Positions 2,142-18,040 of a DNA stretch of 64,000 nucleotides are shown in pieces. Source of the DNA: a virus (taxonomy: Duplodnaviria; Heunggongvirae; Uroviricota; Caudoviricetes); IMG/VR virus record IMGVR_UViG_3300044655_003531, positions 1 to 64,000 of that record. One strand, written 5' to 3'. The position numbers and the translations under genes were made by a program. The notes under the pieces were generated by a model that saw nothing but the letters and a program-made list of their open reading frames with translations, searched no databases and was not told the origin of the DNA. Each line of letters starts with the position of its first letter. The first letter of the stretch is position 1.

Positions 2142-2942
2142 TCAATTGGACAGGGGCGCTTTAATTGTTGGATGTGATACATAATTTTCTAAAATAATAT
2201 CTCCTGGCATAAATGATTCGATACCATCTCTAACGTGAACATTTGGTAGTCTAAATGGTTCTCTTTTTATTTGCTCTTTTGCTTGTTCAATATGATTTAA
2301 ATACAAATGTGTATCTCCTAAATTACCAATCAATTCATCAGGTATCATTTGTACTTCATCTGCAATCATTTCCAATAATAATCCATAAGAAGCAATGTTG
2401 AATGGTAAACCCAAGAATGTATCTACTGAGCGTTGATTCCACATTAGAGAGATTGCTCTGGTTGGAACTTCGGCTTCATTCATTATTTTAATATTTAACT
2501 CTTTAATATGTTCTCGGGTTTCCATTTTAAATCTTTCTGTTGATTGAAATATATTACACCGTTCTTCATAACTTAACTCTCTTGTATAAACTTGAAATCC
2601 ATAATGACAAGGTGGGAGAACCATTTGGTCTAATTCACCTACATTCCAAGCCGAAACCATTAATCTCCTACTATCAGGATTTGTTTTAAGGTCGTTGATT
2701 AGGTTTTGGATTTGGTCAATATACTGTGTTCCTTTTACATATAAGGGTTCAATATCATCACCATCATCAATTTTTAATGTTGTTGGAATAGCAACTTCGG
2801 TTTTCCATTTTCTCCACTGTTTACCATAAATTGGTCCCAAATCACCCCACTTCTTAGCAAACTCATCATCTGTTTTGATTTTGTTGATGAATTCTTCTTG
2901 GGTGTATGGTCTTCCATCTGGGTGTAAGTGTTCTTTATTCAT
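2142..2942 (-). CDS. thyA: thymidylate synthase, C-terminal portion (exon 2 or C-terminal fragment of a split gene)
   Basis: Contains WGDLGPIYGKQWRKW, RRLMVSAWNVGELDQMVLPPCHYGFQVY (active-site PPCH), NQRSVDTFLGLPFNIASYGLLLEMIA. Lacks the ThyA N-terminal third, which is encoded at 3951..4268. Confidence 0.85.
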   Translation of the reverse strand: MNKEHLHPDGRPYTQEEFINKIKTDDEFAKKWGDLGPIYGKQWRKWKTEVAIPTTLKIDDGDDIEPLYVKGTQYIDQIQNLINDLKTNPDSRRLMVSAWNVGELDQMVLPPCHYGFQVYTRELSYEERCNIFQSTERFKMETREHIKELNIKIMNEAEVPTRAISLMWNQRSVDTFLGLPFNIASYGLLLEMIADEVQMIPDELIGNLGDTHLYLNHIEQAKEQIKREPFRLPNVHVRDGIESFMPGDIILENYVSHPTIKAPLSN

Positions 2943-3906
2943 AACTTTTTATTTCATTTTTTAATTGTTCTAAATCAATATCACATCTTTTACTTTTAGT
3001 TCTATTACTACTCCATTCTATCATTTGTAGATTACAGTGATGACTAATAATTTCAGGTTCTACATTATTCAAAAATCCTTCAATTATTGAGTATTTGTGG
3101 TCTAATTGGAACCCAATTTTTCCATTTGTTACTCTTTCTAAATTATTTGGGTTTATAATGTTTTTATACATTTTATATGTTGTTTCAGTTAATCGTTTAA
3201 CTTTTTTTCTATAAATTTGGTAATCCGACAAAAACTCATCAGGTATTATCCATCCTCTTTCGATTTTTGTTTTAATACCATTACCAATTCTATTTTCCGA
3301 GTTAATATTAGCGGAATTATTAACCCCGTATTTATCTTTTAATACTTGCTTTATTTTCTCTTTTATACTGTGAGATTTAAACGGGTTGTCAACACCATAC
3401 TTTTTAATCCAAGTATTTAACGCTTTTTGTTTTATTGCATCACTATGAAAAGAATGTTCAACACCATATTTTTTAATCATAGTTGATTTAATTTTCTTTT
3501 TTAGTTCAGGACTTTGTAAAGTATAACCACCGTATTTTTCATTAACAGTTTTACGTCTTTTATTATTTCTTATGATTTTATCTGTTTCCGATAAACTATT
3601 ATATCTTTCTCTAAATTTATTTTTAGTTAGTTCCGAATTGTTATTACACTTTGCAGAACAAAATTTTCTATTCAAATCAATAATTGGGTTACCACAATGG
3701 AAGCAAGTATTAACGGAGTTTCTATCTTTCAAGATATACCTTATCCTATCAACCAATTTAGGATTGTAAATAGTTAGATATTGAGTACTATCAATAATAT
3801 CCTGTTTAAGTGATGATTCAATTACTCTTAATTTTTGAGACAATATTTTATACTCATTATTTTTTATAACACACAAGGTTGTTTCAATTTTAGTTTTTAG
3901 ACACAT
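2935..3906 (-). CDS. HNH homing endonuclease encoded in the sequence that interrupts thyA
   Basis: C-terminal QLDHKYSIIEGFLNNVEPEIISHHCNLQMIEWSSNRTK fits the HNH motif (DH...N...H/N). Basic nucleic-acid-binding N-terminal region with CxxC...C pairs. Sits exactly between the two thyA parts. Its stop overlaps the ATG of the thyA C-terminal ORF. Confidence 0.7.
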   Translation of the reverse strand: MCLKTKIETTLCVIKNNEYKILSQKLRVIESSLKQDIIDSTQYLTIYNPKLVDRIRYILKDRNSVNTCFHCGNPIIDLNRKFCSAKCNNNSELTKNKFRERYNSLSETDKIIRNNKRRKTVNEKYGGYTLQSPELKKKIKSTMIKKYGVEHSFHSDAIKQKALNTWIKKYGVDNPFKSHSIKEKIKQVLKDKYGVNNSANINSENRIGNGIKTKIERGWIIPDEFLSDYQIYRKKVKRLTETTYKMYKNIINPNNLERVTNGKIGFQLDHKYSIIEGFLNNVEPEIISHHCNLQMIEWSSNRTKSKRCDIDLEQLKNEIKSYE

Positions 3907-5324: not shown

Positions 5325-6293
5325 TTATTCATCATCTTTTTTTTCATGTCTAAACCAATTAATCATTCCATCATAAAAAACACTACCATGATTTATCGAA
5401 CCATAATCTTTATGTTCTGCAAAATGTTCAGCATCCAGCAAATCATCTTCGTTTTGTGTTGAGTTTGGTGGTTTCACATTTGATTTTCTTTTTTCCAACT
5501 CATTCCACCATTCATCCGATGTCATATAACTCAAATCGGGATTAATCCTAATTTCTCCGGGTTCATATCCCAATAAGATTGTGGCCGGTAATCCATAATA
5601 CCATATTTTTCTTCCAATCTCTTTTTCTGGGTTTATGAAATTAAAAGGATGTTCTGATATTTTACTTATCAAAGAATGTGCTTCAGCCAATGCCCCTCCT
5701 AAATCTCTCCAATGAAATTTATAAACTTCCTTACCATTTGCTTTAATTGTACATATCCCACCATTTCTGATGCTCCACTCATCCCACTTATATTTGGTTG
5801 AATTAAATTGTCTATAATTTATTTCCCAGCAAACTCTATGAACACCCGTATCGATGTATGGGATAAGCTCTCTCATGGTTGGTACTTCATCATCATTATC
5901 CGAATGATAAACTGAGTAGTCTAACCACCATGTATCAGGACACCCATTCCATTTACCTAAATTGTGTTCATATCCATCAATTGAGTAAACTGGATAAAGT
6001 CTATCTCCTATTTGAATATCAAATATTTTATGCGGTTTTCCAAATTTTTCGGCGGCCTGTTCTAATGTGTAATTTTGTTTTTCAAATTTTTTTAATTCAT
6101 CGTATAAATCTTGATTTAACTCTTTGAGTTTATTTCCCAACTCTAAAAGAGCATGTTCGTTCCAATACCCTTTTTCATCTTCGGGTCTAAAATAGTAAAA
6201 TCCATCAATATCAGGCACAAAATAACCTATCAATTTTCCACCATGTGTGGTGGTAATTTTATAACTATGTTCTACTAATTCGTAATTTAACAT
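5325..6293 (-). CDS. hypothetical protein (322 aa)
   Basis: Long ORF, W-rich. No family recognised. Confidence 0.5.
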   Translation of the reverse strand: MLNYELVEHSYKITTTHGGKLIGYFVPDIDGFYYFRPEDEKGYWNEHALLELGNKLKELNQDLYDELKKFEKQNYTLEQAAEKFGKPHKIFDIQIGDRLYPVYSIDGYEHNLGKWNGCPDTWWLDYSVYHSDNDDEVPTMRELIPYIDTGVHRVCWEINYRQFNSTKYKWDEWSIRNGGICTIKANGKEVYKFHWRDLGGALAEAHSLISKISEHPFNFINPEKEIGRKIWYYGLPATILLGYEPGEIRINPDLSYMTSDEWWNELEKRKSNVKPPNSTQNEDDLLDAEHFAEHKDYGSINHGSVFYDGMINWFRHEKKDDE

Positions 6294-6349
6294 TGAGTTT
6301 AATTTTGGTTTTCAAAATAGGTAGTCTTGTGTGTGAATTAGTTTGTGTG

Positions 6350-6622
6350 TCATAACAAGTTTTTTAAAGTATATTCAATAGCTGCTTCATATGCTTCTGT
6401 TGGTGAATCATAGTGTGTGTCTGTAGGTTTAAATTCAGCATTCCTCTTCTCTTTCAAATTAAAATGCTCAAAATACCAAGACCCCATAATGTTCACATTC
6501 ACTACAGTCCAAATCCCATGCTTCTCATACAACCACATTACTACGTCTGATATAGTTGACAATAATACTCCATGTTTTTTAAACAGAATTTCAGCAATTT
6601 CAAATTTTACTGGTGTGTTCAT
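6350..6622 (-). CDS. member of tandem paralog family (short form, MNTPV...PTEAYEAAIEYTLKNLL)
   Basis: Shares N-terminus MNTPVxFEIA and a 60-aa C-terminal block VVMWLYEKHGIW...PTEAYEAAIEYTL with 6619..7053, 7050..7436 and 9615..9980. Confidence 0.6.
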   Translation of the reverse strand: MNTPVKFEIAEILFKKHGVLLSTISDVVMWLYEKHGIWTVVNVNIMGSWYFEHFNLKEKRNAEFKPTDTHYDSPTEAYEAAIEYTLKNLL

Positions 6623-7053
6623 ATTAAATTATTTAGCGTGTACTCAATAGCTGCTTCGTATGCTTCTGTTGGTGTTTTGAAATTTTCTCCTGATGTAAAC
6701 TCTTTTTTATCAGTATCAATAGACCAATAAAATTCTTTTTGGTCTATCCTATGTGCATAAATCCAAATCCCATGTTTCTCATACAACCACATCACAACTT
6801 CTGCAATGGTTGGTGCTGAGTAGTAGATTGCATTATCATCATTCGGGTATGGAATTTTTTTTAAAAGCATACCTGATTTACCACCATTCAAGTTCCAATC
6901 CCAAATACAATCTTTATCGGATTCATATTCTGTACCTGTTGTTAAATAAAATTCTTTATCGTACTTACTTTTGCGATAAAAGTGACGACATTCCCAAGAA
7001 AATCCTTTTTCTTTTAGGAGTTTTGCAATTTCAAAATTTACTTCAGTGTTCAT
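6619..7053 (-). CDS. member of tandem paralog family (MNTEVNFEIAKLLKEKGF...)
   Basis: Conserved termini with a variable middle. ATGA-type overlap with neighbours. Confidence 0.6.
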   Translation of the reverse strand: MNTEVNFEIAKLLKEKGFSWECRHFYRKSKYDKEFYLTTGTEYESDKDCIWDWNLNGGKSGMLLKKIPYPNDDNAIYYSAPTIAEVVMWLYEKHGIWIYAHRIDQKEFYWSIDTDKKEFTSGENFKTPTEAYEAAIEYTLNNLI

Positions 7054-7436
7054 ATTAAATTATTTAGCGTGTATTCAATAGCCGCTTCGTGTGCTTCTGT
7101 TGGTGAATTATAGTGTGTATCTGTAGGTTTAAATTCAGCATTCCTTTTCTTTTTCAAATCAAAATGTTCAAAATACCAAGACCCCATAATGTTCACATTC
7201 ACTACAGTCCAAATCCCATGTTTCTCATACAACCACATCACAACTTCTGCAATGGTTGGTGCTGAGTAATATCCAGCATTTCTTTTATGCATAGATGTAT
7301 CTCCAATAGTATGATTATTCCAATCTCCAAGTTCAAAAGTATAAAGATTTAAAGATGAATAATAACTCCAACATGGTATATCAAACCCTTTCTCTTTTAG
7401 CAACTTTGCTATCTCAAAACTTACTGGCGTGTTCAT
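7050..7436 (-). CDS. member of tandem paralog family (MNTPVSFEIAKLLKEKGF...)
   Basis: C-terminal 60 aa nearly identical to 6350..6622. N-terminal 18 aa identical to 9615..9980. Confidence 0.6.
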   Translation of the reverse strand: MNTPVSFEIAKLLKEKGFDIPCWSYYSSLNLYTFELGDWNNHTIGDTSMHKRNAGYYSAPTIAEVVMWLYEKHGIWTVVNVNIMGSWYFEHFDLKKKRNAEFKPTDTHYNSPTEAHEAAIEYTLNNLI

Positions 7437-7788
7437 TGGTTAGTGCTTTAATTAGTGCATCCGCTTTCATTACTTTAATTTTTGCCTCTACAAGCATCCA
7501 CCATTTCATTCTTTCTAAATCAGGAGAACGCGGAATATCTGAATCCATTAACGGCCTAACCGTGTCATAGGTATAATCATCCACCGGCATAATAGAAGCA
7601 AAGTACTCGCGCTTGGTTAATTTGCCATGAATAAAATCGTCTGGGTGTGTTTCGTTATTGCTCATAGTGGGCAATTCAATAGGGGTTACATACTCGTCAA
7701 TGTATTGCATGATGTGTTTTGCGTCTATCATTGACACCTCGCATTTTTCAGCGGCAGTTAAAAACATCTCTTTTGTGTATAGTTTCAT
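7414..7788 (-). CDS. hypothetical protein (124 aa), MKLYTKE N-terminus
   Basis: ORF. Shares its 5' nucleotide sequence ATGAAACTATACACAAAAGA with 7812..8144 and the 12.7 kb gene. Confidence 0.5.
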   Translation of the reverse strand: MKLYTKEMFLTAAEKCEVSMIDAKHIMQYIDEYVTPIELPTMSNNETHPDDFIHGKLTKREYFASIMPVDDYTYDTVRPLMDSDIPRSPDLERMKWWMLVEAKIKVMKADALIKALTNEHASKF

Positions 7789-7811
7789 AGTTTGGTTTGG
7801 TTTAGGTTGGG

Positions 7812-8144
7812 TTACACGATTCTACCCTTAATCGCACCTGCATAATGTTTGACAAATTTTTCGACTTCAACTTTTAATTCGTCAAGAGTATCGGTTTTAA
7901 ACTCTTTCCTCAAAATTTCATCATCAAGGAAATACACTTGGACTGTTCCTTCCCAAAAATTACCAATGTTTTTATGTGGTGGATAAAACCTGCTGCTAAT
8001 TGACAGCAAGGAGCCATCAAAGTCCAATTTAAATCCACAGTCCCATTTCCATTTTGGTTCATTGTGTATTTCCTTTTTTTCGTTTGCTTTGGCTTCCCAG
8101 AGCATTGCAAAATCCCAATCCAATTCTTTTGTGTATAGTTTCAT
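7812..8144 (-). CDS. hypothetical protein (110 aa), MKLYTKE N-terminus
   Basis: ORF with conserved 5' end. Preceded by the CCAACCTAAACCAAAC spacer. Confidence 0.5.
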   Translation of the reverse strand: MKLYTKELDWDFAMLWEAKANEKKEIHNEPKWKWDCGFKLDFDGSLLSISSRFYPPHKNIGNFWEGTVQVYFLDDEILRKEFKTDTLDELKVEVEKFVKHYAGAIKGRIV

Positions 8145-8157
8145 AGGTTAGTTTGGT

Positions 8158-8418
8158 TTAGGTTGGCATGTAATCTTCAAAGTCCTTTTTTGCTTTTTCC
8201 ATTTTTTCTTTCAATCGGTTTTTTTCATCCACGATAATTGCAGACGCTTGCTCTCTTGAGATTTTAAATTCATAAATTTTCGTTCCATGGTTATAAAGCG
8301 TAATTTGAGGAGTAGTGTATTGTTGGTTTACTCCTGCAGCAAAGGATTCGTAATCAGCGACAGCCCTGTTGAGCTTATCCATAAGCTCTCTTGCGTGGTT
8401 TAATTGATGGTGATTCAT
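8158..8418 (-). CDS. hypothetical protein (86 aa)
   Basis: ORF. Start preceded by the TAAACCAAACTAAACC spacer. Confidence 0.45.
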   Translation of the reverse strand: MNHHQLNHARELMDKLNRAVADYESFAAGVNQQYTTPQITLYNHGTKIYEFKISREQASAIIVDEKNRLKEKMEKAKKDFEDYMPT

Positions 8419-8431
8419 GGTTTAGTTTGGT

Positions 8432-9190
8432 TTAGTAAATGTATTTCCCTACCCATTGGGTATGACCTTCGGGGGTTGTTGTTTCCTTATGTACTTTTTT
8501 CAAAGGACAGGTAGGTATTTCTTTTCTGATAGATTCATATTGAGACTCATCAAACTTAACCCAACCGGCTTCTGTGCCATAATAATATTCACTTGACATA
8601 TAAAAATATTGTATCTCACATTCAAACGCAGTAGGTAATTCGGGTTGTGATAAAGATTCAACATAATTATCAAACCACTTAGTATATTTTGAAATAGCTT
8701 GAATCATATCCCACGCCGTAACATCTCCTGTTGGAAGTAGAGTAACTAAATTGTTTCTAATTGTAAGCATATCCTCATTGGTGTACTTGTACTTCTCTTT
8801 GGCTTTGTTGTGGCCATTTATAAAGCCAGCCTTTAAGTAACCAGGGTAATTAAAAAATTCGTTTGGATCATCATCACATGATTGACTCTGCTCGCTGTAT
8901 TCTCTTTCCGCTAACTCTTCAACTTCATCTTCAAGCGGTGGTAGCAAGTCCACGCCTTCAAGGATTGGCGAGTCATTGAGTGGTAGATGAGCAATTATTT
9001 TTCTGCAATAATCCATGTGTATTTGAGAGCTCTTATCAAATAAAAATTGTTCATTATAATAATCAGTTACTTGACGAATATCTAATACCTCTAATTCGGT
9101 ACAATTTACAAGCACCGTATCACCTGTACAAATTTCTGAATCATCAACCACCAATAGGTAGTCTTTCGTGTGAATTAGTTTGTGTGTCAT
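8432..9190 (-). CDS. hypothetical protein (252 aa), MTHKLIHTKDY N-terminus
   Basis: Long ORF. Its first ~35 nt are duplicated as a truncated remnant at 6320..6353. Confidence 0.5.
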   Translation of the reverse strand: MTHKLIHTKDYLLVVDDSEICTGDTVLVNCTELEVLDIRQVTDYYNEQFLFDKSSQIHMDYCRKIIAHLPLNDSPILEGVDLLPPLEDEVEELAEREYSEQSQSCDDDPNEFFNYPGYLKAGFINGHNKAKEKYKYTNEDMLTIRNNLVTLLPTGDVTAWDMIQAISKYTKWFDNYVESLSQPELPTAFECEIQYFYMSSEYYYGTEAGWVKFDESQYESIRKEIPTCPLKKVHKETTTPEGHTQWVGKYIY

Positions 9191-9618
9191 TGGTTTTGTT
9201 TTACAATTTCAATTAACTTCCTAAGACAAGCAAGTTCTGCTTCTTCGTAAGTTTTTCTTTTGCCTGTTTCATCTATAATGTAATCCCAAGATATCACTAC
9301 TGGATATTCATCAACTGATTCAATGTATATTTCTTTGGGTATACCAATAACATAAGATGCTCTAAAAATCGTACCCCTAATATGGATATCATAACCACAC
9401 TTCTCTCTAAACCATCTAAAAGCTTGTGAGAATGTTGGTGCTGTAACTTTACCCTTTGGGTGGTTAGAGTTTTTATAAAATTGACTACAGGAATGAGTAT
9501 ATGTTGGTACTTTAGCATACTCGGTTTCCCAACTACCAAAACAAGGTTCATCAAATCCAAGTTCTTTAAGTACTAATGCTTCTTCGTAGGGTACAAATTC
9601 TTTTTCTAAGGTGTTCAT
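9187..9618 (-). CDS. divergent member of the MNT... paralog family (143 aa)
   Basis: MNTLEKEFVPYEEALVLKELGFDEPC start and ...RKLIEIVKQNQ end resemble the family termini. Central FRWFREKCGYDIHI resembles the MWLYEKHGIWI block. Confidence 0.45.
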   Translation of the reverse strand: MNTLEKEFVPYEEALVLKELGFDEPCFGSWETEYAKVPTYTHSCSQFYKNSNHPKGKVTAPTFSQAFRWFREKCGYDIHIRGTIFRASYVIGIPKEIYIESVDEYPVVISWDYIIDETGKRKTYEEAELACLRKLIEIVKQNQ

Positions 9619-9980
9619 AACAAGTTTTTTAAAGTGTATTCAATAGCTGCTTCGTAAGCTTCTGTTGGTGAATTAAATGGATTGATATTGAGTTGTACTA
9701 TTGAATTTGTTGATCTGGATTTTTGACTTTGGATTGTAAATTGAAATTTTGAAACATTACCTAAATGTGAATACAATCCTCCATTAATCCAAATCCCATG
9801 CTTCTCATACAACCACATCACTACTTCTACAATGGTTGGTGCTGGATAATTATTACCTCTATGATTTTCAGTCAATTCTCTTGTGTCTGGGAAATAAAAT
9901 TTTTGATTATCGCCAAAATCTAATTTATATCCCTTTTCTTTTAGCAACTTTGCTATCTCAAAACTTACTGGCGTGTTCAT
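9615..9980 (-). CDS. member of tandem paralog family (MNTPVSFEIAKLLKEKGY...PTEAYEAAIEYTLKNLL)
   Basis: Termini conserved. About 45 nt at the 5' end identical to 7050..7436. Confidence 0.6.
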   Translation of the reverse strand: MNTPVSFEIAKLLKEKGYKLDFGDNQKFYFPDTRELTENHRGNNYPAPTIVEVVMWLYEKHGIWINGGLYSHLGNVSKFQFTIQSQKSRSTNSIVQLNINPFNSPTEAYEAAIEYTLKNLL

Positions 9981-10204
9981 TTTATATTTGTTAATGGATA
10001 AGCGTTTAAAACGGCCTCTTCAACTTCATCATAAGTTGCAATATCAGTACTAGAACCTAAACAGGGTATACTTTCAAGAGAAGCTTTTAAAGCGGCTTCA
10101 ACATGAAGTTTGGCAAATTCAATCATTGCTGTTTTAACATCTTTATGATTGATAATACAACCTGTTACTTTAGTGTATGTTTCTTCTGCTGTTGGTATTT
10201 TCAT
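9977..10204 (-). CDS. hypothetical protein (75 aa)
   Basis: ORF in array. Start preceded by the TTTAACACCAAATAAAA element. Confidence 0.45.
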   Translation of the reverse strand: MKIPTAEETYTKVTGCIINHKDVKTAMIEFAKLHVEAALKASLESIPCLGSSTDIATYDEVEEAVLNAYPLTNIK

Positions 10205-10206
10205 TT

Positions 10207-10491
10207 TTATTTGGTGTTAAAGGTTTCGTTTTTTATTGTGTCTAAAACTGCTAAGACACCATCCAAGTAGATTATGTCTCTAAAAGATGATGAATTGGTT
10301 TTTGCTTCTTCAAATTTGTCAATTGCTTTTTGGATTTTAACATTCATCTCATTATTATGCATCTCTTTTGCTTGATTAAATAAGTCAACACGGGTAACAC
10401 CATATTGGCCAAGTGTTATTTCCTTGTTTTCAAATCGAATTAGCAGGTCCCAGACTTGGCGTTCATACCACTCTATACTACTTTGTTTCAT
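10207..10491 (-). CDS. hypothetical protein (94 aa)
   Basis: ORF. C-terminus ...ETFNTK is encoded by the repeated element. Confidence 0.45.
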   Translation of the reverse strand: MKQSSIEWYERQVWDLLIRFENKEITLGQYGVTRVDLFNQAKEMHNNEMNVKIQKAIDKFEEAKTNSSSFRDIIYLDGVLAVLDTIKNETFNTK

Positions 10492-10730
10492 TTACTGTCA
10501 ATTTTAAGATTTTCAATTTCGTGCTTTACTTGCATAAGATATGGGCTTAGTGTTAATTCGGCAATATCTTTTGCAATACCCATAGAGTGAAGTGCTGAAG
10601 CATATACCTCCATCATCTCATCAATTGCAATTAATGAACATTTTTTAGCATTATCTTCGGGATATGGTCCATCTGCGACCAGCTGATAATATTTGTAGTA
10701 AAGTTCTTCTGATTTTTCTTTAGGTGTCAT
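10488..10730 (-). CDS. hypothetical protein (80 aa)
   Basis: ORF in array. Confidence 0.45.
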   Translation of the reverse strand: MTPKEKSEELYYKYYQLVADGPYPEDNAKKCSLIAIDEMMEVYASALHSMGIAKDIAELTLSPYLMQVKHEIENLKIDSK

Positions 10731-10957
10731 TTCTCTTTGGTGTTAAATGGTTGATTTCTGATTTCAGACTCAAGTTTCATCATATCAATAAAACATTGTC
10801 TTAGATGTGAATACATTCGTCCAAGTTCAAACCCATATACAATATCGTCCCTTTCACCACTACATAAGTCTAGAACTAATTGGGCATTGAATTCAAACAT
10901 TTTCTTGAAGTGTTCAAGTTTTTCTATTTGTTCTTGAGTAATAAGATATTCTTTCAT
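10727..10957 (-). CDS. hypothetical protein (76 aa)
   Basis: ORF. C-terminus ...PFNTKEK encoded by the repeated element. Confidence 0.45.
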   Translation of the reverse strand: MKEYLITQEQIEKLEHFKKMFEFNAQLVLDLCSGERDDIVYGFELGRMYSHLRQCFIDMMKLESEIRNQPFNTKEK

Positions 10958-10982
10958 GTTTATTTGGTGTTAAAGGTTTGAT

Positions 10983-11174
10983 TTATCCCCATCCTATTAG
11001 TTTGCTAACTTCGCTGGGATTGGGGTGTTTATGCTTCTTTTCACGCATCACTTCGAGATAGTATTTTCCACATTCTCCCATAAACATAGGGTCTCCAGCT
11101 GAAGCAAATCTATATGTGCTAAGAAGTTGTTCATAGTTAGCAGAATCAATCCACTCTTTTTGTTCTTGTGTCAT
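10983..11174 (-). CDS. hypothetical protein (63 aa)
   Basis: ORF in array. Confidence 0.4.
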   Translation of the reverse strand: MTQEQKEWIDSANYEQLLSTYRFASAGDPMFMGECGKYYLEVMREKKHKHPNPSEVSKLIGWG

Positions 11175-11193
11175 TTCTATTTGGTGTTAAAAT

Positions 11194-11832
11194 TTAGTAA
11201 GCTTCAGCGTAGATTTCCATATTTCGAAAGTCTGAATAATAACCATCAGTCCAACTTACTCTACGATTGCCACATTGGCACCGGTGGTATTGTGGATTCC
11301 AACCATCACATTCATCTTCACAGTTCTGACCTGAAAAGCCAATGTAACCATCGCCGATTTCAACTTTACGTTTCTCAACTTCTTTTTGGAATGCAATATC
11401 GTTGGCGATTGAGATTGCAGTTTCTACCGAAAGACCATCACCAAAGGTTCGTCCATTGACCAAACAAAAGGCGATAGCTTCATTGACCAAATTAGATTTT
11501 TCAGCTTCTCGTTGTTTTAGGAGCTCTGCTTGTTTCTCTTTCTCTTCCTTTTCTTTCACCATTCTCTCACGCATTTCGTAAGTGGATTTGGTGTTGTAGT
11601 AGGAACGAGCCGCTGATTGCAGACGGTCATAAACCTCATTTGGAGTTTTCAACTTTTCCAACTTAGCTTTACTTAAACCAAAGGTACGGCCCGGAAATTC
11701 TTTATTAGCGTTCTTCAATAGTTCGTTGAATTGATTTAGATATTCCTTAGCTTTATCTTCATAAGCTTTAGACAATTCCAAATTTTCTTCTTTAGTTAGG
11801 GTTTCTTTAATTTGATAATACATAACTCTCAT
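11194..11832 (-). CDS. hypothetical protein with coiled-coil centre and C-terminal Cys-rich motif (212 aa)
   Basis: KEKEEKEKQAELLKQREAEK coiled coil. C-terminal CEDECDGW...HRCQCGN cysteine cluster. Confidence 0.5.
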   Translation of the reverse strand: MRVMYYQIKETLTKEENLELSKAYEDKAKEYLNQFNELLKNANKEFPGRTFGLSKAKLEKLKTPNEVYDRLQSAARSYYNTKSTYEMRERMVKEKEEKEKQAELLKQREAEKSNLVNEAIAFCLVNGRTFGDGLSVETAISIANDIAFQKEVEKRKVEIGDGYIGFSGQNCEDECDGWNPQYHRCQCGNRRVSWTDGYYSDFRNMEIYAEAY

Positions 11833-11882
11833 TTTTTAATTACAAAGTAAAGATAAGTTATTTTTTAATTCCACCCAAACTT

Positions 11883-12032
11883 TCTATATTAATTTTGTGT
11901 TAAATTTTTCTATTTTAATTGCTCTTCCACCACAGGATGTAATCATTTTATCACACCAAAATGGTAAAGTAACCCAATTGTAAATAAGATAATAAGTCCC
12001 ACCTTTCCATTTACGATACCATCTATACTGCA
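11883..12032 (-). CDS. possible small protein (49 aa) ending ...KFNTKLI
   Basis: Unlisted small ORF in a 200-nt gap. Its 3' end carries the same TTAACAC element as neighbouring genes. Could be a real micro-gene or a coincidence of the regulatory element. Confidence 0.25.
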
Positions 12033-12037
12033 TTAAT

Positions 12038-12271
12038 TCAAATTTCATTTGCTATACAATTAAAAGTTTCGTTGTAATATTGCTCGTAGGATTCCCATTT
12101 TTCTTTTTGAACTGCATCAATAGCGCTGTTCCAAGTTTCAGCGTGTTCCTCTTTGTGCATCTCATGGGACTGTACAAATATCCCAATTGTTTGCATGATT
12201 TGCTGGTGTGTTAATATGGTCTCTAATGCCTGTTGTAACCATAAAATACTACTTTGTTTGGTGTTGTTCAT
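12038..12271 (-). CDS. hypothetical protein (77 aa)
   Basis: ORF in array. Confidence 0.45.
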   Translation of the reverse strand: MNNTKQSSILWLQQALETILTHQQIMQTIGIFVQSHEMHKEEHAETWNSAIDAVQKEKWESYEQYYNETFNCIANEI

Positions 12272-12507
12272 TGTTGTTTTAATTTCATTTTATGCCCGAA
12301 ATAAATAAATTCCGTTATGTTATTATCGGGACTAAATATATTCACACCGTCAAATGGTGGTTGTAAATAATGATTAGCTAATTCGTTGAAAAAAATTTGT
12401 AACTCTTGGCTATCAAATTCAAATGTTAAATTTTCCGGAATATCAATTCCAGCCGACTTTAATTGATTGATGAATTTTATCAATGCACTTTCCGAATCAA
12501 CCCTCAT
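12268..12507 (-). CDS. hypothetical protein (79 aa)
   Basis: ORF in array. Confidence 0.45.
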   Translation of the reverse strand: MRVDSESALIKFINQLKSAGIDIPENLTFEFDSQELQIFFNELANHYLQPPFDGVNIFSPDNNITEFIYFGHKMKLKQQ

Positions 12508-12767
12508 TTGTTACCTCCTTGTATTTGATCACGCATCCATTTCGCTCCCTCAATAAAACTACCAAGGTTATCTCCTGCTGTATCATCATTGTTTGACCAT
12601 TTCATTGAGTTTTTATCAAATACCCAATTACTTGCATTGTGATATATCTCATCCTCATTTGGTAGTTCGATGGGTTTAAGTGTAACCATTAATAAATATG
12701 CTAGCTCAGGGTTAGCTTTTGCTTGAGCAATTGCAATACTCATTTGTTCTTCTGTGTATAGTTTCAT
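12504..12767 (-). CDS. hypothetical protein, probable start at internal Met (MKLYTEEQ...; about 87 aa)
   Basis: The ORF track extends to 12851. The internal ATG at 12765-12767 reproduces the conserved ATGAAACTATACAC start seen at 7788 and 8144. Confidence 0.45.
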   Translation of the reverse strand: MKLYTEEQMSIAIAQAKANPELAYLLMVTLKPIELPNEDEIYHNASNWVFDKNSMKWSNNDDTAGDNLGSFIEGAKWMRDQIQGGNK

Positions 12768-13110
12768 AGATTTTGTTTTATCTTTTGATCCCAAAAAAAT
12801 CTTAAACATCCCCAGTAAATAAGCACCAAACATTGCCACTTGGGTACCCATCCGGCCATGGGGGATTCAGTTTTCCACAAAAAATAGGTGTGGATGTTTT
12901 CAGAGTCATTCCAATGTCTCTCAGAGGGTGCAAATTCAATGAGAACAGTGGACCACCTTGCTCTAAAATAAAAATAGTGGTTTAAAAATTCTCCCTCTGC
13001 CTGGATAGGACACTGACCGGAGGGTTTGTAGAGCCATTTTATCATTTTTTTTGGATATGCCGGACGTAGTTAAGATTTCCAAATTATTCGCAGTACTTTG
13101 ACAAGATCTA

Positions 13111-13470
13111 TCAAATCTTTTTCCTCCGTGATAGACATATCTTCTCCTTCAAAAGGAAATCCGGATTTTTAGCAACGCACTCCCAGAATTCTTGCTCGGT
13201 CATCAGACGAGTGCAATTGTTGACTGGATCATCGACGTGGAGTGAATAGTCTACCTCTTCCATCCCTCCGGCCACGCGAACATACTCTTGATACAGGTTT
13301 TCGGAGGGTGTAACGGGCTCGTGGTCATTTAATAGATCTACTTCTAGACCTTCACTGAATAGATCTAGACCTTTATAATCAGGGTTGTTCTCGTGCATGT
13401 AGGTTATGCCTTTTACCCAGAGTAGGGTAATCACCACGGCAGCAATAAAAATTATCAGAAAAGGAGACAT
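13111..13470 (-). CDS. membrane-anchored hypothetical protein (119 aa)
   Basis: N-terminal hydrophobic helix FLIIFIAAVVITLLWV. Moderate-GC block. Confidence 0.45.
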   Translation of the reverse strand: MSPFLIIFIAAVVITLLWVKGITYMHENNPDYKGLDLFSEGLEVDLLNDHEPVTPSENLYQEYVRVAGGMEEVDYSLHVDDPVNNCTRLMTEQEFWECVAKNPDFLLKEKICLSRRKKI

Positions 13471-13489
13471 GAAAAAATGTTTTAATTTG

Positions 13490-13729
13490 TTATAAACTGT
13501 CAGGAGGGATAAATTTATTTTTCTTCAAATGTATTAAATAATTTTCAGATTCCTCCAAAGAACTTAAAGAAGTCAAGTAAATTTTTATATCATCTCTTAA
13601 AAGAGAACACCTGTACTCTTTTTCAAAATGAGTGCTGGTAGAATTGTGGTAGGTGTCGGTAAGAATTAGAATCTCTCCCATGACTCCATCTTCTAAATCA
13701 AGATATCTAACGTTTTCTTCTTTCTCCAC
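13490..13729 (-). CDS. hypothetical protein (79 aa)
   Basis: ORF. Confidence 0.4.
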   Translation of the reverse strand: MEKEENVRYLDLEDGVMGEILILTDTYHNSTSTHFEKEYRCSLLRDDIKIYLTSLSSLEESENYLIHLKKNKFIPPDSL

Positions 13730-13730
13730 T

Positions 13731-14015
13731 TTAGGAATTTAGAGCAATGTAGGTGGGTCCTTGACCAGGATAAGTTTGGGCCGGAGCATCTTCCACAACC
13801 TCGACTATTTTCCAATTTTTGTTCATCTCTTCTAAAAGTGATCTGTGAAATTTTTTCGTTTCCGGGGGTGAATCTAGATCTTCTAACAGAATAGAACACT
13901 TGGTGATTTCTGCAACCCTTATCTTCTTTAAATTAGAAGGAAATCCGGCAGCGTCTTTCAGATCCACCAATCTGCCGATAATGTAGATCTTGTTGAGATT
14001 GAACTGATTAGTCAT
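13731..14015 (-). CDS. hypothetical protein (94 aa), weak SSB/OB-fold-like N-terminus
   Basis: NKIYIIGRLVDLKD resembles the SSB start MNKVxLIGxLxxDPE. Weak. Confidence 0.35.
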   Translation of the reverse strand: MTNQFNLNKIYIIGRLVDLKDAAGFPSNLKKIRVAEITKCSILLEDLDSPPETKKFHRSLLEEMNKNWKIVEVVEDAPAQTYPGQGPTYIALNS

Positions 14016-14448
14016 TGAAAATAGGAATTAAATTAACTCTTTGTTCGTGTCTTCCCCCTTCGAAGGGAGTTTCTAAGAAGGTCTTTACTATTTTCCAGGC
14101 CTCGCTGGAGGAGATAAACCTGGCAGGTAGACATAAAATGTTGGCGTCGTTGTGGCTTCTGGCCAGTCTAGAAACTTCCTCGTTCCAACACAAAGCTGCT
14201 CTGGACCTATTCCACTTATTAGCAGCCATGGTCATTCCGTTGCCCGAACCACAAATTAGAATTCCAATGTTGTTATAAAGGGTTCCTGACAGTGAATGAG
14301 CGATGTTTGGATAGTCTACTGACTCTTCAGAATGGGTACCGAAATCTCTGACCGTGAATTCGTTTTCTTGAAGCTTGTCGATGATAAAACTTTTGAGCTC
14401 ATAGCCTGCATGATCCGAGCCAATGTAAATTGTTTTTTTATTTGTCAC
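14008..14448 (-). CDS. rpiB: ribose-5-phosphate isomerase B (RpiB/LacAB family)
   Basis: IYIGSDHAGYELK, ILICGSGNGMTMAANK, FEGGRHEQRVNLI are hallmark RpiB motifs. Confidence 0.8.
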   Translation of the reverse strand: MTNKKTIYIGSDHAGYELKSFIIDKLQENEFTVRDFGTHSEESVDYPNIAHSLSGTLYNNIGILICGSGNGMTMAANKWNRSRAALCWNEEVSRLARSHNDANILCLPARFISSSEAWKIVKTFLETPFEGGRHEQRVNLIPIFND

Positions 14449-14519
14449 GTGGGATTTATTTTTTATGAATTTGAATAAGGTATTTATCTTATAGGAGAAA
14501 TATTCTGATTATTTCTTAC

Positions 14520-14771
14520 TTAGTCCTCTGTCCTGCAATTTTTTCTGAATAAATGAACTAATTGGATCAATTCATCGTCAAATTCAATTCTTAAATGAGA
14601 AGAAAAAGTAGAAATAACAAACCAGGAATTGGAATCGTCTGTGAAAGGCAGGCCCTGCAAGGTAAAATCTGGAAAATTGAGCACATAGTGGGGACAGCAC
14701 GTTTCCCCGGTCTCGTCATCGATCATGTAATCTTTGTCAAATCCCAGGGAGATGAGGGTTGATTCTAGCAT
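14520..14771 (-). CDS. hypothetical protein (83 aa)
   Basis: ORF. Confidence 0.4.
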   Translation of the reverse strand: MLESTLISLGFDKDYMIDDETGETCCPHYVLNFPDFTLQGLPFTDDSNSWFVISTFSSHLRIEFDDELIQLVHLFRKNCRTED

Positions 14772-14773
14772 GT

Positions 14774-14986
14774 TTATTCGGGATTTAGGGCTTGTTTTTG
14801 ACCTTCGGAAATACCCATCTCGTAGGCTTTTTGGAGATCTGATAAAGTCTGTTCGTATAATTCCCTGTAAATAGACAGGATTTCATTTTTCTTGTCGTCC
14901 GGAATTTCTCGGAGGGCTTTGAAAATCAACTTCGTGATCGGGATTCCCGTCAGGGAAAGATCCTCTAGATAAACTAATTTTTTCAT
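14774..14986 (-). CDS. hypothetical protein (70 aa)
   Basis: ORF. Confidence 0.4.
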   Translation of the reverse strand: MKKLVYLEDLSLTGIPITKLIFKALREIPDDKKNEILSIYRELYEQTLSDLQKAYEMGISEGQKQALNPE

Positions 14987-15005
14987 TTTTTTTATTTTTT
15001 TAATA

Positions 15006-15539
15006 TTAATCCCACCAAGATTTCAACCCAGTGTTTGTATCCTTTAATATTTCAAATAGTTCATCCCATTCATCGTTTTCTATTTTAAGTGAACACTCAG
15101 ATACTTTAGAATTATGTTCACTCTCTTCTTTAGTTAGGTTATCTTTCAATGTAAATAATTCAGAATTATCGGTTAGTGGAACAAACTTAAATTCTCTATG
15201 AACTAATTTACCACACTCTTTTTCGGCCAATTCAATATAAGAATCATCTAAGTGATTAGACAAAATTTGGATAGCCCTTCGCATTTTGGTAATTTTTACA
15301 AGCCGTGTCTCATTAACCTCCGAACCTTTGGTTTCTATACCATTTGCCATATCACTAATTCCTATTTTCATAAAATGTAATAAACTATGATTATCCCACC
15401 ATTTAAACTCATATAGGGGTTTTCTGAACATCCAAATGTTCTTAAAGAAGTTGATACACATTTTAATAGGGTATATAAAATCGTTATAGTAATACTTAAC
15501 CATATAGCTGTTTAAATATTTGCATTCGTTCTTCCTCAC
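15006..15539 (-). CDS. hypothetical protein (177 aa)
   Basis: ORF. Confidence 0.45.
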   Translation of the reverse strand: MRKNECKYLNSYMVKYYYNDFIYPIKMCINFFKNIWMFRKPLYEFKWWDNHSLLHFMKIGISDMANGIETKGSEVNETRLVKITKMRRAIQILSNHLDDSYIELAEKECGKLVHREFKFVPLTDNSELFTLKDNLTKEESEHNSKVSECSLKIENDEWDELFEILKDTNTGLKSWWD

Positions 15540-15873
15540 TCATTGCTCGGGGTAACTCATAATCATCAGTTCGATTTTCTTCCAAGTATTGGTGTAGTTC
15601 TTCTACCGTTCGACATAATTCGTCCCCATCTTTATCTGTCATTTTCAAATCCATTCGTTCTCCCCATTCTTTTTCCCAACACCACCAATCAAATGTTTCT
15701 TTACCTTCTTTGCCATAGATTGAACCAATTAACATAGAGATAGCACTTTCTAATGGGTCAACAAAATTTATAAGGTCAACACCTGATTTATACGCTTTAT
15801 CTAAGCTTTCTTGTTGTTCTTTAAGTTTAGAAACAATTTCTTTGAACACTTCTAGTTTTATGCTGTAATCCAT
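15496..15873 (-). CDS. hypothetical protein (125 aa)
   Basis: ORF. Overlaps the previous one; the real start may be internal. Confidence 0.4.
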   Translation of the reverse strand: MDYSIKLEVFKEIVSKLKEQQESLDKAYKSGVDLINFVDPLESAISMLIGSIYGKEGKETFDWWCWEKEWGERMDLKMTDKDGDELCRTVEELHQYLEENRTDDYELPRAMSEEERMQIFKQLYG

Positions 15874-16163
15874 TCTGTTTTACTTTTAAGTTGGATACTT
15901 TCACTTCCATCATATTCATTGATAATAAAATCTTCTCCTTCATCTACCCACACTACGACTAAATCTTCAACCCCACCGATGTACGTGTCCATATAGGTAT
16001 TTCTAGCATACTCGTTTGCACCATCAAAATCTTCTGATCCAACCAACTCTACTAACTTTGGATCAAATATTGCCTCAATGGGCGCTCCCCAAGTGTAGAA
16101 CCCAGCTCCGTATCCACGGGAAATAAGAACTGCTACTTTACCATCTTTAATTAATTTATTCAT
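15858..16163 (-). CDS. hypothetical protein (101 aa)
   Basis: ORF. Confidence 0.4.
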   Translation of the reverse strand: MNKLIKDGKVAVLISRGYGAGFYTWGAPIEAIFDPKLVELVGSEDFDGANEYARNTYMDTYIGGVEDLVVVWVDEGEDFIINEYDGSESIQLKSKTEWITA

Positions 16164-16167
16164 AGTT

Positions 16168-16485
16168 TTACATATTTTTAATTTCTTTTTCTACCTCCAC
16201 CCAGAATGTTGTTTTGGGATGGTTTGCCCAATAACAGGTTTCCGATTCTTCGTCATCATCTTTCATAAACTGGAATATTTCACCAACAACAGCAAGAGCT
16301 GATTCTTTCCATTTTGGATTTGAATAGAAACTTTTGTATTCACCGGTTGTTACTTCATAAACTTTATTAGTTGAAAATCCAACCGACCCGACTATTTGAA
16401 GTGCCTTTTCTTTTGGTGTAATTGTGATTGGTTTGTATTTAGACATAGAATTTTTTTGAGTTAAAGAGCTTATTTTCAAGCTCAC
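16168..16485 (-). CDS. hypothetical protein (105 aa)
   Basis: ORF. Confidence 0.4.
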   Translation of the reverse strand: MSLKISSLTQKNSMSKYKPITITPKEKALQIVGSVGFSTNKVYEVTTGEYKSFYSNPKWKESALAVVGEIFQFMKDDDEESETCYWANHPKTTFWVEVEKEIKNM

Positions 16486-16865
16486 AGAACAATTTCGAAT
16501 CTTTCCTTCATTTGGAGGATTCTTTCGTCAGGTACTCCGTGGACATTCTTTCCCCCGTGTCTGTTTTCAACAATCAATGAAAAAACGGTGAATCCGTATT
16601 TTTCTGCAAGTTCATAATAGGCCGACATTTCCCATTTTCTGGTGAAAGTGTTGGACACGACTACCTTATCTTCTCCTCTACTCATAGCAGTTTCTGCAGT
16701 TTTTTTGCACCACTCGTGAGCTTCTTTGAGCAGAAGAGGATCAAATTTATATTCGTTGTCTTTCATGAAGAACATATCAGCCTCGACGTGAGAACCCCCG
16801 ATTGCTTTGGCTAGGGTGGATTTTCCAGCCCCTGGGCAGCCTCTTAATAAAAATAAAGATTTCAT
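16482..16865 (-). CDS. pnk: polynucleotide 5'-kinase, stand-alone homolog of the T4 Pnk kinase domain
   Basis: LLRGCPGAGKSTLA P-loop aligns with T4 Pnk ILTIGCPGSGKSTWA. ELAEKYGFTVFSLIV aligns with ETFAKEYGWKVEHKVF. VPDERILQMKERF aligns with VPIDVLRSMYKSM. Confidence 0.75.
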   Translation of the reverse strand: MKSLFLLRGCPGAGKSTLAKAIGGSHVEADMFFMKDNEYKFDPLLLKEAHEWCKKTAETAMSRGEDKVVVSNTFTRKWEMSAYYELAEKYGFTVFSLIVENRHGGKNVHGVPDERILQMKERFEIVL

Positions 16866-16883
16866 CCTTTTGTCGAATTTGTT

Positions 16884-17339
16884 TTAGAATGCTCCGTAGT
16901 TAACTTGAAAACAGGCAATACCTTGGTCCCTCCACATTTTTACTACTTTATCTCTATCATCATAAACGCACATTATTTCATTTCCCTCCGAGATAAATTT
17001 ATCCATCCATGCCTTCTTCAAGACCTCGTCCGGGGTGTAATCGTGATGTGATCTCATTTGGAGGAAATCAGGCACGATCCCTTGATCACCCAACCACTGC
17101 TCGGTTTCTTTTCTGGAAATCTCATCTCTCCCCGAGAAAATCCCTACCTTTAATCCTGCCTGCTTTAAAAACTGAAAAGTTCGGATAACTGGTAAATTGG
17201 GCTCATCCAATTGGATGTTCTCAGGAGCAAAAAATTCTTTCCAGTTCAATTTGCCAGTTGGCAGAGTAGCCTTGGATCTTCTTTTTTCGATCAGAGCCAG
17301 GGTTCCATCCAGATCGAAAATAACCGATAATTTTTTCAT
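16884..17339 (-). CDS. pnk: polynucleotide 3'-phosphatase, stand-alone homolog of the T4 Pnk HAD phosphatase domain
   Basis: VIFDLDGTLA matches T4 VIFDVDGTLA. GIFSGRDEISRKE matches VVVSGRESGTKE. YDDRDKVVKMWRDQGIACFQVNYGAF matches [26 protein letters not shown]. Encoded upstream of the kinase gene, so the domain order is permuted relative to T4. Confidence 0.85.
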   Translation of the reverse strand: MKKLSVIFDLDGTLALIEKRRSKATLPTGKLNWKEFFAPENIQLDEPNLPVIRTFQFLKQAGLKVGIFSGRDEISRKETEQWLGDQGIVPDFLQMRSHHDYTPDEVLKKAWMDKFISEGNEIMCVYDDRDKVVKMWRDQGIACFQVNYGAF

Positions 17340-17346
17340 GATTTTA

Positions 17347-17997: not shown

Positions 17998-18040
17998 GGT
18001 GTTGTAATTTGTAGCAAATATACGAAAAAGATCCGACAAA
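17998..18040 (-). promoter_or_regulatory. Bacteroidetes-type promoter (-33 TTTG, -7 TATATTTG) upstream of the 17347..17997 gene
   Basis: Minus-strand sequence TTTTTTGTCGGATCTTTTTCGTATATTTGCTACAAATTACAACACC-ATG. Similar TATATTT(G/A) boxes lie upstream of the starts at 25230, 23110 and 26148. Confidence 0.45.

Follow-up and report, generated by a model that had tools for sequence, protein, structure and literature searches.

Several described systems combine conserved sequence with exchangeable variable segments. The gp38 tail-fibre adhesins of T-even phages carry several hypervariable segments that are separated by short, strictly conserved glycine-rich motifs (PMC3157838). The motifs form the structural core, the variable segments set host range and are described as easily interchanged, and recombinants between related phages have been obtained in crosses. 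Neisseria Opa outer-membrane proteins are encoded by several paralogous loci per genome, and each gene has a conserved framework with two hypervariable regions, HV1 and HV2, whose combinations are reassorted by recombination (PMC2265424, PMC13183285). There are 76 HV1 and 93 HV2 variants in 124 observed combinations. In T4-type phages, PeSL promoter/stem-loop cassettes are short conserved sequences at gene borders that act as recombination handles to insert, delete or replace small genes of unknown function between closely related phages (PMC2839356, PMC4122927). Here we describe five neighbouring genes of an uncultured large phage (IMG/VR record IMGVR_UViG_3300044655_003531) that belong to a very large, unnamed and essentially phage-only protein family in which two variable segments are exchanged between near-constant blocks. 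The function of these proteins has not been demonstrated.

The locus lies within the 64,000-nucleotide stretch that was analysed, hereafter called the window. A first-pass annotation had proposed that five tandem paralogs at this site share invariant termini and differ in a variable core. All five ORFs exist on the minus strand, at 9615-9980, 9187-9618, 7050-7436, 6619-7053 and 6350-6622, and a profile search of all six reading frames showed that they are the only family members in the window. Four are close relatives, which we term lineage A, whereas the 143-aa ORF at 9187-9618 is a distant relative (about 31% identity) that belongs to a separate framework lineage, C. The architecture is more specific than constant ends with a single variable core. 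The three long lineage-A genes and the lineage-C gene follow the plan C1-V1-C2-V2-C3, with three constant blocks and two variable cassettes.

The 121-aa lineage-A gene at 9615-9980 carries C1 at 9927-9980, V1 at 9843-9926, C2 at 9789-9842, V2 at 9672-9788 and C3 at 9618-9671, and its stop codon overlaps the start of the next gene (ATGA). The lineage-C gene carries C1 at 9538-9603, V1 at 9442-9537, C2 at 9394-9441, V2 at 9253-9393 and C3 at 9196-9252, and has the same predicted fold plan with different constant sequences. The 128-aa lineage-A gene at 7050-7436 carries C1 at 7383-7436, V1 at 7263-7382, C2 at 7209-7262, V2 at 7107-7208 and C3 at 7053-7106. The 144-aa lineage-A gene at 6619-7053 carries C1 at 7000-7053, V1 at 6817-6999, C2 at 6763-6816, V2 at 6676-6762 and C3 at 6622-6675. 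The 90-aa short form at 6350-6622 lacks only V1, rather than the variable core as first proposed. It has an N-terminal part at 6563-6622 that is diverged after residue 10, C2 at 6509-6562, a V2 at 6407-6508 that is 89% identical in DNA to that of 7050-7436, and C3 at 6353-6406. Conserved short forms of 90-92 aa exist elsewhere (relatives P0054 and P0057-P0063).

The near-identity of the gene ends at the DNA level between non-adjacent copies, also noted in the first-pass annotation, was confirmed. Over the first 51 nt, the non-adjacent 128-aa and 121-aa genes match at 48/51. Over the last 54 nt, the 90-aa and 121-aa genes match at 51/54, as do the 128-aa and 144-aa genes. The middle block C2 matches at 50-53 of 54 positions among the three long lineage-A genes, whereas the variable segments fall to about 10-50% identity in 30-nt windows. 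The copies in the window are mosaic block by block. In addition, the C3-to-C1 junction between the 144-aa and 90-aa genes (6585-6674, minus strand) and that between the 128-aa and 144-aa genes (7016-7105, minus strand) form a direct repeat of about 90 nt at 88% identity, which we infer might serve as a substrate for unequal crossing-over.

The gene at 8432-9190 (minus strand) encodes a 252-aa protein of unknown function, follows the A-C pair and is not a family member. Homologues with about 50% identity follow the family array in two other loci (L001 and L014), although an exact look-up of the protein found nothing. As the first-pass annotation had recognized, the start of this gene is duplicated. 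Positions 6316-6353 match 9153-9190 at 36/38, and this 38-nt copy is joined to the stop of the 90-aa gene by an ATGA overlap to give a 13-codon remnant ORF at 6312-6353 (minus strand) that reads MTHKLIHTQDYLF followed by a stop codon. The same remnant is present in strain L069 within a stretch that is 98.7% identical to the window.

AlphaFold models of the 128-aa protein (pLDDT 90.8) and the 143-aa protein (pLDDT 88.0) give the same order of predicted elements, namely helix, three strands, helix, three strands, helix. The constant blocks map onto the three predicted helices, and each cassette forms a three-stranded beta unit in the models. All five window proteins have a pI of about 5.2 and negative overall hydropathy (GRAVY), and judged on these properties alone they are probably soluble and cytoplasmic.

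Cassette exchange was observed directly among relatives. A gene in sister strain L080 is 100% identical to the 128-aa gene up to C2 and 100% identical to the 121-aa gene afterwards, which places an exact crossover inside C2. Strain L075 is 99.1% identical to the window down to position 7208, the C2/V2 border, and then diverges. Sister strains keep the V2 of the 121-aa gene but carry other V1 cassettes, with homology to the window starting at 9850, and the V1 of the 144-aa gene occurs with other V2 cassettes in relatives P0017 and P0103. Among long contigs, L001, L019 and L022 share V1 at 99.4-100% nucleotide identity with unrelated V2s, and L022 and L067 share V2 at 100% with unrelated V1s, whereas the constant blocks between them are only 83-98% identical. 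A sample of 117 lineage-A relatives gave 52 V1 classes, 40 V2 classes and 85 combinations, including all four pairings of V1 classes 0 and 5 with V2 classes 0 and 8. For lineage C, there are 51 V1 classes, 52 V2 classes and 78 combinations, and the V1 of the window's 143-aa gene occurs with 18 V2 classes and its V2 with 9 V1 classes. Some individual junctions could be mis-assembled, since several of the close-strain contigs are short (0.5-6 kb) metagenome assemblies.

Strains that are 99% identical to the window in flanking DNA also differ in copy number. Strain L069 has one gene where the window has three, and 28 of 67 loci hold two or more copies, with up to 7 within 20 kb. Relative P0158 is an in-frame fusion of two neighbouring genes. 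Lineage C often sits next to lineage A. These findings support the first-pass interpretation of recombination at conserved gene boundaries, and show that it also occurs inside the gene. We infer that the same recombination changes copy number in the tandem arrays and inserts or removes whole genes at ATGA stop/start overlaps, and that the 38-nt remnant is a scar of one such event.

Between loci, the constant blocks exhibit a pS of 0.51 and a pN of 0.13 (dN/dS about 0.16), while flanking proteins are only about 40-65% identical. Synonymous sites are near saturation, and DNA-level homogenisation was therefore rejected as the reason the blocks are conserved across phages. Rather, they are kept by purifying selection on the protein, although within one phage population they are near-identical in DNA (about 50 nt each, and about 100 nt where the C3 of one gene abuts the C1 of the next). 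Within cassette classes, pN/pS is about 0.43.

A profile search found 6,571 clusters at 50% identity, and the sister lineage has at least 7,963 sequences, making this one of the larger protein families in phage metagenomes that still has no name, domain model or function. Only 12 hits were found in 185,579 bacterial and archaeal species genomes, all on MAG contigs of scattered taxonomy, and so no host inference is possible. Searches of Pfam, NCBIfam, PADLOC and PDB sequences gave no meaningful hit for any lineage or for longer fusion proteins. Of 77 members scanned against PADLOC, only two isolated weak hits were obtained (E 7.6e-4 and 5.5e-3, one member each). Megablast of the region against 50,697 phage records found no match, and tblastn found only Leptolyngbya phage Lbo-JY46, whose locus is annotated entirely as hypothetical proteins, and a few unannotated huge-phage records. 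A promoter and terminator scan found no more than chance, with promoter-like sites below expectation, and no tRNA genes were found. Neighbouring genes, which include small genes of unknown function, thymidylate synthase, homing endonucleases and RNA repair genes, are uninformative. Literature searches found no description of such a family.

Recombination in the constant blocks has swapped single cassettes between paralogues and between co-infecting phages. In our favoured explanation, which we hold with moderate confidence, it is further inferred that the helices form the backbone of the fold and possibly a conserved contact surface, whereas the beta units are exchangeable recognition surfaces. 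The family would then be a recombination-driven repertoire of small binding proteins, most likely aimed at variable host or rival-phage proteins such as defence components, and an A-type and a C-type gene might work as a pair. The host-interaction or anti-defence role suggested in the first-pass annotation fits the strain-level turnover, but no homology, fold match or gene neighbour assigns a function. More tentatively, populations of large phages might reassort two independently exchangeable recognition modules on a constant three-helix frame, and expand or contract the arrays, to keep pace with host defence or rival-phage proteins. This would constitute a population-level combinatorial recognition system, possibly working through A-type/C-type heterodimers. 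If the cassettes are specificity modules, the family offers a natural small scaffold with two swappable recognition units and a large catalogue of variants. If they are not, it still provides a well-resolved example of sub-gene modular exchange for models of phage genome evolution.

It remains possible, though we consider it less likely, that this is an ordinary fast-evolving phage family in which the helices are the functional core, for example a small helical binding or regulatory module, and V1 and V2 are merely tolerant linkers that drift and are sometimes replaced, with recombination a by-product of sequence identity. Consistent with this view, the constant blocks are under strong purifying selection, including charged residues such as KLLKEK that we assume lie on the helix surface. 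Moreover, the cassettes show no overall positive selection and could be tolerated insertions, and the conserved short forms show that V1 is dispensable for a stable gene product. However, the cassettes are predicted with high confidence to form ordered beta units rather than loops, and the purifying selection within cassette classes indicates that they are not free to drift. Individual classes are also conserved across many backgrounds (V2 class 0 occurs with 32 V1 classes), and identical cassettes have spread onto diverged frameworks, which suggests that they carry a selectable property.

Other readings appear unlikely. A role as virion-associated receptor-binding or decoration modules akin to gp38 is suggested by the similar genetic architecture and by one relative (locus L004) that sits next to a glucosaminidase-domain gene, but no tail-fibre or other structural gene lies near the array in the window or in most loci, and the genes sit among small genes of unknown function and nucleotide or RNA metabolism genes in up to 7 copies per locus. 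It is also doubtful that metagenome assemblers created the apparent shuffling by joining paralogues or strains across the constant blocks. Many close-strain contigs are short and end near the family genes, and although blocks of about 54 nt are shorter than typical read lengths, they could confuse low-k assembly graphs. Yet the same combinations recur in independent samples and assemblers (L001-3, L022-24, L077/78 and L080/82), combinations are seen on contigs of 118-219 kb, the final k-mer of 141 in the contig names exceeds the block length, and the window itself holds mosaic copies. Finally, although the hypervariability is localised within an otherwise conserved gene, targeted hypermutation by a diversity-generating retroelement is already contradicted by the sequence. 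The cassettes differ in length (V1 28-61 codons, V2 29-39 codons in the window) and cannot be aligned between classes, rather than differing at adenine-templated positions. No template-repeat copy of a cassette appears among the direct repeats, and no reverse transcriptase was found among the ORFs scanned, which did not include every ORF in the window.

With respect to described families, the window proteins are members of the PHROG families phrog_12005 and phrog_25117. The 144-aa, 128-aa and 121-aa proteins match phrog_12005 (E 2.6e-10, 5.7e-10 and 7.7e-5), and the 143-aa protein matches phrog_25117 (1e-8) and phrog_12005 (2.3e-5), whereas the 90-aa short form has no hit. These PHROGs carry no annotation, and the modular plan and the shuffling are not part of any description that we could find. 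There is no Pfam match, at E of 0.1 or better, to the UPF0339/YegP-like (DUF1508) family of beta3-alpha units, whose function is also unknown. The resemblance to gp38 lies in hypervariable segments that are separated by conserved motifs and exchanged by recombination, and is not evidence of membership. There is no sequence or fold relationship, the conserved parts are predicted helices rather than glycine-rich motifs, and the genes are multi-copy tandem paralogues in a non-structural region rather than a single adhesin gene next to a tail-fibre gene. The analogy with Opa extends to several paralogous loci, each with two hypervariable regions reassorted by recombination. However, Opa proteins are bacterial surface beta-barrels selected by host immunity and receptor binding, whereas these are small, probably cytoplasmic phage proteins with a predicted alpha/beta fold, and the tandem ATGA-overlapping arrangement is specific to this family. 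As with PeSLs, short conserved sequences act as recombination handles, but PeSLs are non-coding regulatory motifs between genes. Here the handles are coding sequence under protein-level selection, and one of them, C2, lies inside the gene, so that parts of genes are exchanged.

The region holds a run of short minus-strand genes, five of which are one family. These are located at 9615-9980 (121 aa), 9187-9618 (143 aa), 7050-7436 (128 aa), 6619-7053 (144 aa), and 6350-6622 (90 aa). A profile search of all six reading frames finds no further copy in the 64 kb. Adjacent members overlap by ATGA, where the stop of one gene shares bases with the start of the next. In addition, positions 6316-6353 repeat the first 38 nt of the 252-aa gene at 8432-9190, matching at 36/38. 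This repeat is joined by the same ATGA overlap to the stop of the 90-aa gene and leaves a 13-codon ORF, MTHKLIHTQDYLF*, at 6312-6353. The first-pass annotation had proposed that the gene ends are nearly identical in DNA between non-adjacent copies, and this holds: the first 51 nt of the non-adjacent 128-aa and 121-aa genes match at 48/51, and the last 54 nt of the 90-aa and 121-aa genes match at 51/54. The initial observation of a tandem paralog family is therefore confirmed, with three corrections. The genes have two variable segments separated by a constant middle block rather than a single variable core, the short form lacks only the first variable segment rather than the entire core, and the 143-aa gene, initially noted as a divergent member, belongs to a separate lineage of the family.

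Translation-checked coordinates give the plan C1-V1-C2-V2-C3, in which three constant blocks (C) alternate with two variable segments, or cassettes (V). For the 128-aa gene, these are C1 at 7383-7436 (MNTPVSFEIAKLLKEKGF), V1 at 7263-7382, C2 at 7209-7262 (APTIAEVVMWLYEKHGIW), V2 at 7107-7208, and C3 at 7053-7106 (SPTEAHEAAIEYTLNNLI). An AlphaFold model built on 77 sequences is confident (pLDDT 90.8, pTM 0.83) and predicts a helix at residues 7-15, strands at 22-27, 30-37 and 56-58, a helix at 62-73, strands at 75-81, 87-93 and 100-102, and a helix at 112-127. In this model, the three constant blocks are the three helices, and each variable segment is a three-stranded beta unit. The 143-aa protein has different constant sequences and unrelated V1 and V2 segments, yet it is predicted to fold to the same plan (pLDDT 88.0). 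The proteins are mildly acidic (median pI about 5.2), and overall hydropathy (GRAVY) is negative for the five window proteins, although no signal-peptide or transmembrane predictor was applied.

The 128-aa protein has 2,031 relatives at 90% clustering, and a profile search of 1.84 billion cluster representatives finds 6,571 clusters with E of 0.001 or better. None carries a Pfam domain or an informative name, and PHROGs files them under phrog_12005 and phrog_25117, both of unknown function. Three framework lineages are visible. Lineage A is the main type in the window, lineage B is characterized by MITEDYVSFEIAKLLKEKGF ... APTLQMAMKWLREVH ... YEEACEAAIKYCLENLI, and lineage C by KEFVPYEQALALKELGFDEPCF ... 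APTFSQAFRWFREKY ... TYEEAELACLxKLIEIVK. Some relatives carry extra N- or C-terminal extensions of 50-140 residues (L048 8458-9261 and L056 6165-6722, which are ORFs from two related loci, and the relatives P0195, P0235, P0239, and P0344), and the two extended ORFs from L048 and L056 that were scanned had no Pfam match. The contigs carrying the family are mostly 50-360 kb and viral, whereas only 12 of 185,579 species genomes contain a member, all on MAG contigs of scattered taxonomy. The family is therefore essentially restricted to phages, apparently large virulent ones. The only cultured carrier found is Leptolyngbya phage Lbo-JY46, which has two copies.

The window itself has no close relative among 50,697 phage records. 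Its other genes include several that fit a large phage. Thymidylate synthase (2142-2942) is flanked by two homing-endonuclease-like ORFs (1501-2070 and 2935-3906), and in relatives (loci L004-L007) the thymidylate synthase gene is called either as one 371-aa ORF or as split pieces next to a NUMOD3 ORF. There is also an RNA repair set (16884-17339, 19557-20627, and 31372-32448) made up of polynucleotide kinase plus two RNA ligases, one with a PHA02142 OB-fold domain and one like T4 Rnl1. Auxiliary genes that are unusual for a phage (39168-40220, 45152-46312, 55341-57806, and 61365-62831) encode a glutamine-synthetase-like protein, a DegT/DnrJ aminotransferase, a ClpB-like double AAA+ ATPase of 821 aa on the plus strand where the coding strand switches, and a RimK-type ATP-grasp enzyme.

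Exchange of cassettes is demonstrated by several types of evidence. When 117 lineage-A relatives were split at the constant blocks, we obtained 52 V1 classes, 40 V2 classes, and 85 combinations. Fourteen V1 classes occur with more than one V2, ten V2 classes occur with more than one V1, and all four pairings of V1 classes 0 and 5 with V2 classes 0 and 8 are present. Lineage C gives 51 V1 classes, 52 V2 classes, and 78 combinations, and the V1 of the window protein is seen with 18 V2 classes and its V2 with 9 V1 classes. Cassette exchange between frameworks exists but is rare. For example, L014 9570-10004, from a related locus, has a lineage-C framework carrying a V2 like the common lineage-A V2 (TWYFELYDLNDKRNAEI), and one V1 class is shared at about 50% identity between lineage A (relatives P0027, P0041, and P0096) and lineage C (P0230).

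Long contigs from independent samples reveal the same process at the nucleotide level. Contigs L001, L019, and L022 (118-125 kb) share V1 at 99.4-100% nucleotide identity over 165 nt, while their V2 segments are unrelated (51-56%, the level of a random alignment). Similarly, L022 and another contig, L067 (219 kb), share V2 at 100% over 96 nt with unrelated V1 segments. The constant blocks flanking these shared cassettes are less alike (83-98%) and the upstream DNA is unrelated, so single cassettes have recently been placed onto diverged frameworks. The same combinations recur in three samples each (L001-3 and L022-24), which argues against the possibility that they are assembly chimeras.

Sister strains of the window phage provide further examples, although several of the strain contigs are short metagenome assemblies. 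Contigs carrying a protein 100% identical to the 143-aa gene product are 99.2% identical to the window from 8414 to 9850. At the position of the 121-aa gene, they carry the same V2 joined to other V1 segments, which are the V1 of the window's 128-aa gene (contigs L080 and L082, and partial copies in L077-79), that V1 with an 8-codon deletion (L081), or a short third V1 (L076). Site by site, the L080 gene is identical to the 128-aa gene from the ATG to CCAACCATTG in C2, and from there it is identical to the 121-aa gene through the stop and into the next gene, which corresponds to one crossover inside a 54-nt block. Another strain contig, L075, is 99.1% identical to window 7208-7671 and loses all similarity exactly at the C2/V2 border. 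The copies inside the window are also mosaic. The 5ˊ end of the 128-aa gene groups with the 121-aa gene and its 3ˊ end groups with the 144-aa gene, whereas the 3ˊ end of the 90-aa gene groups with the 121-aa gene.

Copy number and gene order vary as well. Twenty-eight of 67 related loci hold two or more copies, with up to 7 within 20 kb. The sister strain contig L069 is 98.7% identical to window 6183-6414 and contains the same remnant ORF, but it has a single family gene where the window has three. Where C3 of one gene abuts C1 of the next, about 90 nt are repeated at 88% identity (6585-6674 and 7016-7105). This is a plausible substrate for unequal crossing-over, although that step is inferred. 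The order A gene, C gene, 252-aa gene is conserved in L001, and L014 also carries a homologue of the 252-aa gene (about 49% identity) on the same locus as its family array. The remnant at 6312-6353 indicates that an A-type gene end was once joined directly to the 252-aa gene start, and that the rest of that copy was lost. In addition, P0158, a metagenomic relative of 239 aa, is an in-frame fusion of two neighbouring C-type genes. An A gene immediately followed by a C gene recurs in L014, L019, L030, L033, L067, L071, the window's strain group, and the window itself.

The DNA next to the array also differs between strains. In sister strains L080, L081, L082, L076, and L069, the homologue of the 230-aa gene at 17347-18039 (89-100% identical) lies directly upstream of the A-type family gene, whereas the window has about 7.4 kb of extra genes at that junction (9991-17378), including polynucleotide kinase. 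L076 carries parts of this DNA in a different order. Other small genes in the window share repeated sequences at their starts or junctions. Genes 7414-7788 and 7812-8144 both begin MKLYTKE and share a 42-nt block (7769-7810 and 8125-8166), 95% identical, that covers the start codon and the upstream sequence. The upstream motif TTCATnGTTTnGTTTGGTTTAG occurs a third time (8414-8435) before gene 8158-8418. This may be a second set of conserved gene starts or junctions, reminiscent of the PeSL cassettes of T4-type phages. A 33-nt junction repeat (70-91% identity) recurs at four consecutive junctions between small genes (10199-10231, 10725-10757, 10952-10984, and 11169-11201), spanning the 3ˊ end of one gene and the start of the next. 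The two upstream genes whose ends could be read finish in ...FNTK or ...FNTKEK, and these small genes also keep conserved ends.

Between loci, the constant blocks show near-saturated synonymous change (pS 0.51, dS about 0.84) but little amino acid change (pN 0.13), giving a dN/dS of about 0.16. Identical codons at identical residues run at 0.62-0.69, against 0.41 expected from codon usage, and flanking orthologues in the same phages are only about 40-65% identical in protein. Across phages, then, the predicted helices are held by selection on the protein, whereas within one population they are near-identical in DNA and so serve as recombination sites. Within cassette classes, pN/pS is about 0.43. 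The cassettes are less constrained than the helices, but they are neither free to drift nor under blanket positive selection.

No function could be assigned to these proteins. There is no match in Pfam, NCBIfam, PADLOC, or PDB sequences, a Foldseek search against the PDB finds nothing significant, and BFVD returns only uncharacterised phage proteins. The best-supported reading is an inference from anatomy and population behaviour. The proteins have a conserved, predicted helical frame that carries two ordered, exchangeable beta modules, they are encoded in expandable arrays in a non-structural region, and they turn over between strains that are 99% identical elsewhere. This pattern suits small cytoplasmic binding proteins with swappable specificity, used in conflict with variable host or rival-phage proteins. 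We are highly confident in the architecture and the recombination mechanism. In contrast, the proposal that the cassettes are recognition modules is tentative, and the suggestion that their targets are defence-related remains doubtful.

We found no paper describing this family, and it is a member only of the two unannotated PHROGs. The known systems closest in how they work are the T-even gp38 adhesins, in which hypervariable segments between conserved core motifs are exchanged in crosses (PMC3157838), the Neisseria Opa proteins, which are a multi-locus family with reassorting HV1 and HV2 regions (PMC2265424), and the PeSL cassettes, which are conserved border motifs that shuffle small genes in T4-type phages (PMC2839356). 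Diversification of a family by recombination at conserved motifs is already known. However, the family examined here is a member of none of these three systems. It shares no sequence or fold with them, its constant parts are predicted helices, one recombination handle lies inside the gene, and the genes form tandem arrays.
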